Origin: Shigella phage ESh24
Reading direction: 5' to 3' (one strand)
Sequence record: ON528734
DNA: 64,000 nt
Shown here: one piece after another, positions 970-3,625 of the stretch
Layout of the letters: the number at the start of each line of letters is the position of its first letter
How positions within the stretch are numbered: the first letter of the stretch is position 1
Translations under genes and position numbers: made by a program
Notes under the pieces: generated by a model
The model's database searches: none
The model's input: the letters and a program-made list of their open reading frames with translations, nothing else
Told to the model about the DNA's origin: nothing

Positions 970-1998
970 ATGTCATCAATACCTTGGATTGATAATGAGT
1001 TTGCATACCGTGCATTAGCTCATTTACCTAAATTCACACAAGTAAATAATAGTTCAACTTTTAAATTGCGGTTTAGATGCCCAGTGTGTGGAGATTCAAA
1101 AACCGACCAGAATAAAGCTCGTGGATGGTATTATGGTGATAATAATGAAGGAAACATTCATTGTTATAACTGTAACTATCATGCACCAATCGGAATATAT
1201 TTAAAGGAGTTTGAACCTGATTTATATCGTGAGTATATCTTTGAAATAAGAAAAGAAAAAGGTAAAAGTCGTCCAGTAGAAAAACCTAAAGAACTTCCTA
1301 AACAACCTGAGAAGAAAATAATTAAATCTCTTCCGTCATGTGTTCGATTAGATAAACTGGCGGAAGACCATCCAATTATAAAATATGTAAAAGCTCGTTG
1401 TATTCCAAAGGATAAATGGAAATATCTTTGGTTTACAACCGAATGGCCTAAATTAGTTAATAGCATAGCACCGGGAACATATAAAAAGGAAATTTCTGAG
1501 CCTCGTCTTGTTATTCCAATTTATAATGCTAATGGAAAAGCTGAGTCTTTTCAAGGACGTGCATTAAAGAAAGATGCTCCTCAAAAATATATCACCATCA
1601 AAGCTTATCCTGAGGCAACAAAAATCTATGGAGTCGAACGAGTTAAAGATGGTGATGTATATGTTCTAGAAGGACCTATAGATTCGCTTTTTATTGAAAA
1701 TGGTATAGCTATTACGGGTGGTCAATTAGACCTAGAAATTGTTCCATTTAAAGATAGACGTGTGTGGGTTTTAGATAATGAACCTCGTCATCCTGACACT
1801 ATTAAGCGAATGACTAAATTAGTTGATGCAGGAGAAAGGGTTATGTTTTGGGATAAATCTCCCTGGAAATCAAAAGATGTTAATGATATGATTAGAAAGG
1901 AAGGTGCAACCCCTGAACAAATTATGGAATATATGAAAAATAATATTGCCCAGGGGTTAATGGCTAAAATGCGGTTATCTAAATATGCTAAGATTTAA
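970..1998 (+). CDS. 61: DNA primase gp61
   Basis: 342 aa; Zn ribbon CPVCGDS..HCYNCNYH, TOPRIM-like VLEGPIDSLF and DNEPRH; matches T4 gp61. Confidence 0.95.
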   Translation: MSSIPWIDNEFAYRALAHLPKFTQVNNSSTFKLRFRCPVCGDSKTDQNKARGWYYGDNNEGNIHCYNCNYHAPIGIYLKEFEPDLYREYIFEIRKEKGKSRPVEKPKELPKQPEKKIIKSLPSCVRLDKLAEDHPIIKYVKARCIPKDKWKYLWFTTEWPKLVNSIAPGTYKKEISEPRLVIPIYNANGKAESFQGRALKKDAPQKYITIKAYPEATKIYGVERVKDGDVYVLEGPIDSLFIENGIAITGGQLDLEIVPFKDRRVWVLDNEPRHPDTIKRMTKLVDAGERVMFWDKSPWKSKDVNDMIRKEGATPEQIMEYMKNNIAQGLMAKMRLSKYAKI

Positions 1999-2195
1999 AT
2001 TAACCCAACTAAAGCAAATGCTAAATCTACGAATGTATCAAGAGTAACTACTGGAATACTAACGCCATGAGCAATAGCAACTGGCGATAAAACAAAATTC
2101 CAAAGTAAAATTCCTATCATAGCAGAAATAGTAAAAGCTATACGTTTCTTATTACCTTTTATGGCATTAACAAGTGCCATTAATTTTTGTACCAT
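1995..2195 (-). CDS. small two-TM membrane protein on the strand opposite to all flanking early genes
   Basis: 66 aa; strong SD AAGGAGG 4-5 nt before the ATG on the minus strand; two hydrophobic segments; its stop overlaps the gene 61 stop (TTTAAA). Confidence 0.6.
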   Translation of the reverse strand: MVQKLMALVNAIKGNKKRIAFTISAMIGILLWNFVLSPVAIAHGVSIPVVTLDTFVDLAFALVGLI

Positions 2196-2231
2196 ATGTC
2201 CTCCTTTAAATTAATATTTATCATAAATTTG

Positions 2232-2260
2232 TTTACTTTCTCAGCTTGTTATGGTATTAT
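2232..2260 (+). promoter_or_regulatory. T4-type early promoter
   Basis: -35 TTTACT 2232-2237, 17-nt spacer, -10 TATTAT 2255-2260; serves ORF 2286 and dam. Confidence 0.6.
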
Positions 2261-2285
2261 AAAATAAATTGCTGAGGATGATATA

Positions 2286-2846
2286 ATGATTAATAAAATT
2301 GTGCATGAAATGGCTTTAAACGGAGATTCATATAAAATATCTTCCGTAGTTGAAAATTTCATACTTAATAAAGTAAAAGAATATTTCACTGATTGTTCAG
2401 TTAGTTATCAAGAAAAAATGGTTTTAACCGATGATACCGAAAAATCAAATAATTTGTTTTGCTCTAATTTTATAACTAAGAAGCGTACTAGAAGATTTGA
2501 TATTGTTATTTCTCGCAACGGTAAAAAGCATATAATTGAAATTAAACACCAAGTTGGTGGAGGTACAGCTATTGATTCGGTTGGAATATATTTAGAAGAT
2601 AAAGAGAAATTAAAAGAATACACAAAAACTGAAAACCCTGTGTCATTGATGATATTAGATTTTTTGCCATGCGGATATTATCCACGTAATAAATGGACAA
2701 AAAGAGAATCATTTACTGATAATCCAACTATCCAAGCAAGATTTAATGAATATGCTAAATCACAAAACGTGTTAGTATTACTATCAAATACATATGATGA
2801 AGAATTATATAATTCGTTTTTTGCTGCAATAAATGAGAGAATATAA
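2286..2846 (+). CDS. PD-(D/E)xK nuclease-like protein translationally coupled to Dam (candidate restriction or MutH-like endonuclease)
   Basis: 186 aa; motif RRFD72[13 protein letters not shown]85IK87; SD GAGGATG; stop TAA overlaps dam ATG (TAATG at 2844-2848); ATA/AGA-rich codon usage. Confidence 0.6.
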
Positions 2847-3625
2847 TGCTAGGAGCTATTGCGTATACAGGTAATAAACAGTCATTATTACCTGAACTTA
2901 AGTCTCACTTTCCAAAATATGACAGATTCGTGGATTTATTTTGCGGAGGTTTATCAGTATCTTTGAATGTCGATGGTCCTGTATTGGCTAATGATATTCA
3001 AGAACCAATTATTGAAATGTATAAACGTCTTATTAATGTATCATGGGATGACGTATTAAAAGTAATAAAGCAATATAAACTATCAAAAACATCAAAAGAA
3101 GAGTTTTTGAAATTACGTGAAGATTATAATAAAACTAGAGATCCTCTTTTACTTTATGTTCTTCATTTTCACGGGTTTAGTAATATGATTCGTATAAACG
3201 ATAAAGGAAATTTTACTACTCCGTTTGGAAAAAGAACTATAAACAAAAATAGTGAAAAACGCTTTAATCACTTTAAACAAAATTGTAATAAAATAATCTT
3301 TAGTTCATTGCATTTTAAAGATGTTAAAATTTTAGACGGCGATTTTGTATATGTAGATCCTCCATATCTCATAACAGTTGCTGATTATAATAAATTTTGG
3401 TCAGAAGACGAAGAAAAAGACCTTTTAAATCTTTTAGACTCTTTAAATGATAGAGGAATAAAATTTGGGCTGTCGAATGTTTTAGAGCATCACGGAAAGG
3501 AAAACACTCTTCTTAAAGAATGGTCTAAAAAATATAATGTTAAGCATCTTAATAAAAAATACGTCTTTAACATATATCATTCCAAAGAAAAGAATGGAAC
3601 TGATGAAGTATATATTTTTAATTAA
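2846..3625 (+). CDS. dam: DNA adenine methyltransferase (GATC, N6-A)
   Basis: 259 aa; SAM motif [11 protein letters not shown] and catalytic DPPY (VDPPYLIT); near-identical to T-even Dam as recalled. Confidence 0.95.

Follow-up and report, generated by a model that had tools for sequence, protein, structure and literature searches.

A predicted restriction-fold nuclease gene joined to dam in a T4-like Shigella phage: a candidate restriction-modification-like cassette reduced to its methyltransferase in T4

This work concerns a stretch of 64,000 nucleotides from the genome of Shigella phage ESh24 (sequence record ON528734; the whole stretch is called the window), and in it the gene lying directly upstream of dam, the gene of the phage Dam DNA methyltransferase. 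We refer to this gene, and to the 186-amino-acid (aa) protein that it encodes, as X. The window is part of a Tequatrovirus (T4-like) genome, whose best megablast match is Shigella phage SP21535 (99%). The local gene order is sp, a 61.2-like gene, 61.1, 61, the region of a 66-aa open reading frame (ORF) and X, dam, 56 and soc. A first-pass annotation, made from the letters of the sequence, had noted a gap of about 850 bp between genes 61 and dam; the gap, from the end of gene 61 at 1998 to the start of dam at 2846, measures 847 bp and contains two ORFs, X and the 66-aa ORF on the opposite strand. Two further details of that annotation were found as described: the TAA stop codon of X shares one base with the ATG of dam (TAATG), and X contains the motif RRFD72-x12-E85-I-K87. 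The features of the locus are the following.

970..1998, plus strand: gene 61 (DNA primase), backbone gene of the left flank; 342-aa ORF, PHROG DNA primase, E 1e-106
1995..2195, minus strand: hydrophobic 66-aa ORF (RB32ORF030w / RB69ORF029w-like), backbone gene; phrog_2024, E 8e-31
2161..2180, plus strand: terminator-like hairpin (8 pairs) with T-run, 3' of gene 61 and inside the 5' part of the opposite-strand 66-aa ORF; found by scan, consensus match only
2206..3626, plus strand: X-dam cassette (putative early promoter, X and dam), ~1.42 kb, between the 66-aa ORF and the gene 56 promoter; from alignment to empty sites
2215..2222, minus strand: GATAAATA, putative late-promoter element 5' of the 66-aa ORF; agrees with the T4 late-promoter consensus in 7 of 8 positions, by reading of the sequence
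2223..2761, plus strand: 539 bp missing from T4, with ATC microhomology at both ends; three-way alignment and direct reading
2232..2260, plus strand: early-type promoter-like site, (G)TTTACT-17-TATTAT with extended TG; putative, scan match
2277..2655, plus strand: stretch between two GATGATAT repeats (2277-2284 and 2648-2655), where phage KarlGJung (Bas37) has lost 371 bp
2286..2846, plus strand: X, 186-aa PD-(D/E)xK restriction-endonuclease-like protein (phrog_8706, 'unknown function'), assigned from predicted fold and conserved residues
2352-2354, 2499-2501, 2538-2540 and 2544-2546, plus strand: codons of the invariant, putatively catalytic residues E23, D72, E85 and K87 of X
2846..3625, plus strand: dam, D12-class N6-adenine methyltransferase; Pfam MethyltransfD12 E 5e-51, TIGR00571 dam E 7e-70

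Judged by its predicted fold and by the conservation of its catalytic residues, X is a PD-(D/E)xK nuclease, as the first-pass annotation had proposed from the motif. In the AlphaFold2 model of X (predicted local distance difference test score, pLDDT, 79; predicted template modelling score, pTM, 0.77) the elements follow each other in the order alpha-alpha-beta-beta-beta-alpha-alpha-beta-alpha-beta-alpha. E23 is on the second helix, D72 on strand 2, E85 and K87 are on strand 3, which is the canonical catalytic layout; the model thus has the core fold of the family as well as the Asp of strand 2, the (D/E)xK of strand 3 and the Glu of the helix. Comparison of nine homologues (29-98% identity) showed E23, D72, E85, K87, H88, Q89, G93-S98 and D125 to be invariant, and these include all three residues that the motif had singled out (D72, E85 and K87). 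The Foldseek matches of the model were overwhelmingly PD-(D/E)xK nucleases. The best structural and profile neighbours were type II restriction enzymes, and Can2, McrC, Bax1 and R2 endonuclease were also among the high-ranking structural matches. X resembles MunI/EcoRI-like type IIP enzymes in fold, but the sequence identity is only 12% and the fold is uninformative on the recognition site. The start codon of X is preceded, at a distance of 7 nt, by the Shine-Dalgarno sequence GAGGA (2274-2278), and among close relatives synonymous differences in X exceed non-synonymous ones (5:2, 4:1, 3:1). A MutH/Sau3AI-like nickase, which had been suggested as another possibility, was rejected: X shows no similarity to these enzymes, and they are absent from its Pfam and structural match lists.

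X represents a small family. Out of 1.84 billion cluster representatives, 11 were recovered by an exhaustive HMMER search. No relative came to light in 185,579 bacterial and archaeal species, each represented by one genome in the scan, and scans of IMG/VR, metagenome contigs and genome contigs gave few or no further ones. There was no match in the PDB when its sequences were searched with the X protein and with the X profile. Two database proteins that match X are probably assembly or gene-calling artefacts: a 117-aa protein (P0008), in which the C-terminal half of X follows an epimerase-like N-terminus, and a highly repetitive 765-aa protein (P0016), which matches the C-terminus of X seven times. 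Our literature search found no publication describing X. Type II restriction-modification-like cassettes as a kind are already known; new here are the X family, its apparent restriction to phages and its tie to the classic 'orphan' Dam.

Alignment of the interval between genes 61 and dam across T-even phages established where X and dam are present or absent, and where the cassette begins and ends. At the 61-56 site of the Tequatroviruses RB51 and PP01, the Mosigvirus HX01 and the Gaprivervirus VR26 there is neither X nor dam, and gene 61 is followed directly by the small minus-strand ORF and then by gene 56. The borders were drawn by aligning the empty sites of RB51, PP01 and HX01, and are good to a few bases in the AT-rich junctions. 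It follows from this alignment that the cassette consists of one putative promoter and two genes, and nothing more; the mobile unit is this promoter with X and dam. The first-pass annotation had combined X and the antisense ORF into one island, a grouping which we had to abandon: the 66-aa ORF is a gene of the phage backbone, present in T4 as well as in phages that lack both X and dam. The right border (3626-3690) abuts a promoter-like sequence of gene 56, TTGCTTAC-N-TATAAT, and this area is annotated in T4 as the replication origin oriA, so that the sequence upstream of oriA depends on whether the cassette has been gained or lost.

The early promoter of the cassette had been predicted previously, and our scan found the same pattern at 2232-2260. 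Since the region contains 12 promoter-like sites and shuffled sequences contain 12.0, this match is by itself weak evidence. The call of a putative early promoter rests on agreement with the T4 early consensus (the preceding G yields GTTTAC, which is typical of T4 early promoters) and on the retention of the site in relatives: it is kept in T2 and KarlGJung and deleted in T4. The hairpin at 2161-2180 could separate the transcription of gene 61 from the cassette promoter. An Rfam search of positions 1800-3800 detected no RNA family.

Both X and dam are poor in GC (0.275 and 0.279, respectively, compared with 0.354 for the window). The foreign look of X, which the first-pass annotation had noticed in its codon usage, is thus borne out by composition, but it is not peculiar to X. 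In every lineage found, X lies directly upstream of a D12 methylase gene, which it abuts or overlaps except in T2, so the tight coupling suggested by the TAATG overlap is persistent. The overlap is 1 nt in the window, 4 nt in L002 (X 48% identical; partner 64% identical to the Dam of the window), 7 nt in Klebsiella phage KPV15 (Jiaodavirus), 20 nt in P0014 and 35 nt in P0011, and the two genes abut in L003-L005 (X 57% identical). The pair occurs in three genomic contexts: 61-[X-dam]-56 as in the window, and two others in T4-like phages that are more distant, namely denB...[X-dam]...ndd (KPV15) and [X-dam]-rIIA-rIIB (L022). The two proteins diverge together: relative to the window, identities of 98.9, 57, 49, 44, 38 and 38% for X go with 98.5, 71, 64, 62, 57 and 54% for Dam. 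An endonuclease gene situated next to a methyltransferase gene and inherited with it is the arrangement of type II restriction-modification systems.

Megablast located dam in 181 phage records with 95-99% nucleotide identity; of 183 records counted as carrying dam, ~148 (~80%) have full-length X. About two thirds of the Tequatrovirus records (~320 of ~500) have neither gene. Divergent forms of X occur in six Klebsiella phages. The counts from the phage collection gave no sign of a record that had X and lacked dam.

The dam gene of the window is the same as that of T4: 25 of the 259 codons differ, of which 6 are non-synonymous, corresponding to ~98% amino acid identity. T4 was said in the first-pass annotation to have no counterpart of X, which is true of an intact gene. 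However, the 309-bp gap between genes 61 and dam of T4 contains, besides an intact 66-aa ORF, a remnant of X, ~85 bp from its 3' end, that is frameshifted by 1 nt. What had been taken for an insertion relative to T4 is a deletion in T4, which removed 539 bp comprising the promoter, the Shine-Dalgarno sequence and X codons 1 to ~159. The junction of the T4-type deletion is present in 37 phage records, many of them T4 laboratory strains. The deletion between the GATGATAT repeats in KarlGJung is different: the promoter and the Shine-Dalgarno sequence are kept, the ORF restarts at M122, all four catalytic residues are gone and dam is intact. The T4 and KarlGJung deletions are independent events, and both remove the catalytic core of X and spare dam. 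In G4500 X is split. T2 keeps X with a 1-nt deletion, by which the last residues are rewritten and the ORF ends 13 nt before dam. The X of T2 and the X remnant of T4 share this 1-nt deletion, located in a T-run (~2806-2811), which yields an end in NSFLLQ followed by a stop codon and uncouples X from dam. Because the deletion is common to the two phages, the 539-bp deletion of T4 probably arose on a T2-like allele. In the T4-type and KarlGJung-type deletions the endonuclease was lost first and the methylase was left solitary, which is how solitary methylases usually originate from restriction-modification systems. From these alignments, the solitary state of T4 dam is a recent product of the 539-bp deletion. 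The suggestion of the first-pass annotation that X may be a relic of the origin of dam, or a partner in it, is compatible with these data.

The first-pass annotation had compared the X-dam pair with DpnII/MboI-type systems. DpnII did turn out to be the nearest known sequence family, although all matches remained under the curated thresholds. The matches of the X family are mutually consistent: the top Pfam match is DpnII (PF04556, GATC enzymes), found with 4 of 9 members (best E 8e-5), followed by BanI, PDDEXK_11 and SfsA, and the REase_II model of PADLOC also matches (best E 5e-6). In a targeted test, 80 bacterial loci with relatives of T4 Dam were collected by a Dam-alignment scan of bacterial genomes, and their 1078 flanking ORFs were searched with the X profile. 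The two best matches, L110:4791-5645 and L100:4795-5670, are DpnII-family proteins by Pfam (E about 1e-108), each encoded directly downstream of the methylase, and they are the only DpnII-type proteins that a phmmer search seeded with the L110 protein recovered from the 1078-ORF set. When the X alignment was compared with a DpnII alignment by hhalign (P 0.0017, probability only 15%), E23, D72 and E85 of X were paired with E149, D198 and E211 of DpnII, K87 was opposite Asn, and GGGTAID was paired with SGGSKLN. The helix Glu, the Asp in 'RFD(I/F)VI' of strand 2, the Glu in 'IxE' of strand 3 and the GG(T/S) loop that follows are thus aligned between the two families. These results suggest, at the edge of detection, that X and DpnII have a catalytic core in common. 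We do not file X as a DpnII member: it falls below the Pfam threshold, and the first ~125 residues of DpnII have no counterpart in it. Plasmid homologues of T4 Dam were a dead end as a source of DpnII sequences: in 8 of 10 neighbourhoods inspected, the endonucleases next to the methylase were of AlwI or FokI type, and in the Psychrobacter and Selenomonas neighbourhoods (the other two) no endonuclease was annotated.

Taking these observations together, we think that X and dam together make up a compact cassette of the type II restriction-modification-like kind, probably directed at GATC; we put the probability of this explanation somewhat above one half (about 0.55). Both genes would be read from the early-type promoter of the cassette, and their translation would be coupled through the overlap of stop and start codons that is seen in the sequence. 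X would be a small metal-dependent endonuclease of the MunI/EcoRI-like PD-(D/E)xK kind, with E23, D72, E85 and K87 as catalytic residues. T2 and T4 Dam methylate GATC, and such methylation may shield the DNA of the phage from X. The identity of the partner, along with the weak similarity to the DpnII core, suggests that the site of X is most likely GATC or one that overlaps the Dam site. The DNA attacked would be DNA without the phage Dam mark, e.g. that of co-infecting T-even relatives that lack Dam, or foreign DNA of other origin that is under-methylated, and the cassette might act as a mobile and selfish module of exclusion. After loss of the nuclease, dam would remain as an 'orphan', as in the reference phage T4.

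Several observations weigh against this explanation. The DNA of the E. coli host is Dam-methylated and T-even DNA contains glucosyl-hydroxymethylcytosine, hence there is no obvious target for a classical GATC enzyme, unless it tolerates the modified cytosine. In the usual DpnII/MboI gene order the endonuclease gene does not stand upstream of the methylase gene as X does. The frameshifted X of T2 does not overlap dam, which means that translational coupling is not universal. The similarity of X to PF04556 (16.8 bits, E 0.0045) is below the gathering threshold of 23 bits and covers profile positions 152-235 of 278, so the full-length architecture of ~280 aa is absent. Moreover, as DpnII has ExN where X has ExK, and as the ~125 N-terminal residues are missing, the specificity of DpnII is not transferable to X. 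It must also be noted that, of the 4-bp palindromes, GATC shows the strongest avoidance in the window, with 60 occurrences where 212 are expected (ratio 0.28). We rejected this avoidance as support for X, because it is equally strong (observed/expected 0.22) in a sampled 50 kb of Mosigvirus HX01 (L029, 1-50000), which does not have X-dam between genes 61 and 56 and in which tblastn found no match to X. The avoidance is common to the lineage, and X cannot be named as its cause.

Dam-minus T-even DNA contains little N6-methyladenine (m6A) even when it comes from dam-plus hosts. Given a methylated host and hypermodified T-even DNA, the most plausible victims of X are co-infecting genomes without the phage Dam mark, including those of the dam-less majority of Tequatroviruses. 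In its strongest form, the restriction-modification explanation would make X-Dam an active weapon of phage against phage, in which X tolerates glucosyl-hydroxymethylcytosine and cuts unmethylated GATC in dam-less co-infecting T-even genomes. We regard this specific proposal as doubtful. If true, it would lead to marker exclusion and to a homing-like spread of the cassette, and it would help to explain why GATC is avoided in spite of DNA modification that should shield it from host enzymes.

Some features of the cassette, namely its polymorphic insertion between conserved genes, its own putative promoter and its patchy distribution, are reminiscent of the free-standing Seg/Mob homing endonucleases. 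X could be a Seg/Mob-like homing-type endonuclease built on the PD-(D/E)xK fold, which cuts T-even genomes that lack the cassette, either close to the 61/56 junction or at other places. Break repair would then copy X with dam as a passenger, and methylation would be irrelevant or secondary. This seems to us unlikely. X has a fold different from that of Seg/Mob enzymes, contains no GIY-YIG or HNH domain (Pfam), and its nearest structural and profile neighbours are type II restriction enzymes. It is obligately paired with a methylase: dam was present wherever X was seen, and the two proteins diverge in parallel down to 54% Dam identity. One would not expect a mere passenger to remain joined through overlapping codons in all lineages. 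The homing explanation and the restriction-modification explanation overlap, because restriction-modification cassettes can act as mobile selfish elements. It is also conceivable, with about as little likelihood, that X is a nuclease with another job, such as breakdown of host or foreign cytosine-containing DNA, repair or recombination, or counter-defence, and that its linkage to dam reflects shared regulation or descent. The PD-(D/E)xK fold is multifunctional, as the presence of Can2, McrC, Bax1 and R2 endonuclease among the high-ranking matches illustrates, and T-even phages already encode nucleases that spare their own modified DNA, e.g. denA and denB. Such a function, however, gives no account of a constant, overlapping Dam-type partner in three genomic contexts, nor of independent deletions that hit the nuclease core and spare dam, and restriction enzymes are the sole profile-level neighbours of X.

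Two further explanations appear much weaker. X might be methylation-dependent and cut Dam-methylated cytosine DNA, i.e. the host chromosome, with glucosyl-hydroxymethylcytosine protecting the phage and Dam marking all targets. We consider this very improbable. In dam-plus hosts such an enzyme would find an abundant target; but there the host is fully methylated already, which would make the phage Dam redundant, and T2 and T4 Dam also methylate phage DNA. An endonuclease specific for G(m6A)TC is known from the dam locus of Neisseria (PMC4269198). DpnI, on the other hand, is built differently, with winged-helix methyl readers (PMC11037411), and neither Pfam nor the structural matches revealed one in X. 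Least probable, in our view a marginal prospect, is that X is an inactive or decaying relic, kept for the translation signals of dam at its 3' end. The repeated loss of or damage to X (the T4-type and KarlGJung-type deletions, the split ORF of G4500, the frameshifted C-terminus in T2) would agree with such a state. However, full-length X with invariant catalytic residues persists down to ~30% identity, the excess of synonymous over non-synonymous changes in close relatives speaks against decay, and X is intact in ~80% of the dam-carrying Tequatrovirus records.

It is instructive to compare the X-dam cassette with known systems. X adjoins a Dam-class methylase, similarly to the DpnII/MboI-type systems, which consist of a PF04556 endonuclease and a DpnM/Dam-class D12 methylase. 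Unlike in those systems, the gene of X is upstream of the methylase gene and overlaps it, X has 186 aa compared with ~285 aa of DpnII, and the carriers are virulent phages with hypermodified DNA. There is a viral precedent: Chlorella virus PBCV-1, a lytic virus, encodes the GATC system R.CviAI/M.CviAI, with the endonuclease gene A579L and an early-transcribed m6A methyltransferase (PMC7248222). This arrangement is like X-dam in that a lytic virus has a GATC methyltransferase in a viral restriction-modification system; PBCV-1 is, however, a eukaryotic giant virus. R.CviAI has a role in the degradation of unmethylated host DNA, whereas the host of the X-dam phage is already methylated.

T2 and T4 Dam are textbook examples of phage 'orphan' methyltransferases, whose role was never settled. 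A 2025 review counts as orphan enzymes those phage methylases that have no restriction gene next to them, and T4 Dam is one of its examples (PMC12707154). The dam of the window is the same gene, but in the window, in T2 and in ~80% of the dam-carrying Tequatrovirus records it is not solitary. A 2026 preprint mentions in passing that T2 encodes Dam (XUQ82749.1) and Bas38 does not (10.64898/2026.01.15.699771); in the T2 record the gene of XUQ82749.1 is directly downstream of X. Most dam-carrying relatives, including the classical T2, keep a conserved restriction-fold nuclease beside dam, and the two genes change genomic sites together. Dam may thus be the protective half of a phage-borne restriction-like module, and X would represent a small, apparently phage-restricted family of candidate restriction enzymes. 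The old question of the role of these methyltransferases has thereby become testable.

The 66-aa ORF on the minus strand (1995-2195), which the first-pass annotation had described correctly with its AAGGAGG upstream, and the stop codon of which overlaps that of gene 61, deserves attention in its own right. It is a real gene of the phage backbone for a small membrane protein, conserved but uncharacterised, and has no relation to the cassette. It was detected by tblastn in 692 phage records, always abutting the primase gene (the gene 61 product of the window is nearly identical to T4 gp61), and these cover several Tevenvirinae genera, with ~50% identity in Mosigvirus and Gaprivervirus. VR26 has two tandem copies. 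In RB51 the ORF is annotated as RB32ORF030w, 'similar to RB69ORF029w', and in T4 it is intact (L001 2739-2939; T4 record 17738-17938) and unannotated in RefSeq NC_000866. Residues W32, N33, P38, G44 and P48 are invariant, and the protein is hydrophobic over residues ~19 to 66. In most pairwise comparisons synonymous differences exceed non-synonymous ones (7:4, 10:5, 10:4), with a 3:3 tie in two of six. The sequence resembling a late promoter that was reported earlier was also found: GATAAATA matches TATAAATA in 7 of 8 positions, RB51 and HX01 have AATAAATA at the place equivalent to 2215-2222, and NATAAATA is located upstream of the ORF in four phages. The gene is possibly expressed late.

Two side observations concern the neighbouring genes. 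The homing endonuclease gene segF, which T4 and VR26 have between genes 56 and soc, is absent there from the window (4205-4272); within the same 6-kb stretch T4 has segF and no X, and the phage of the window and T2 have X and no segF. The gene in the 61.2 position (445-801) encodes 118 aa, compared with 208 aa for T4 gp61.2, and is of the 'RB32ORF033c, similar to gp61.2' type found in RB51, PP01 and T2.

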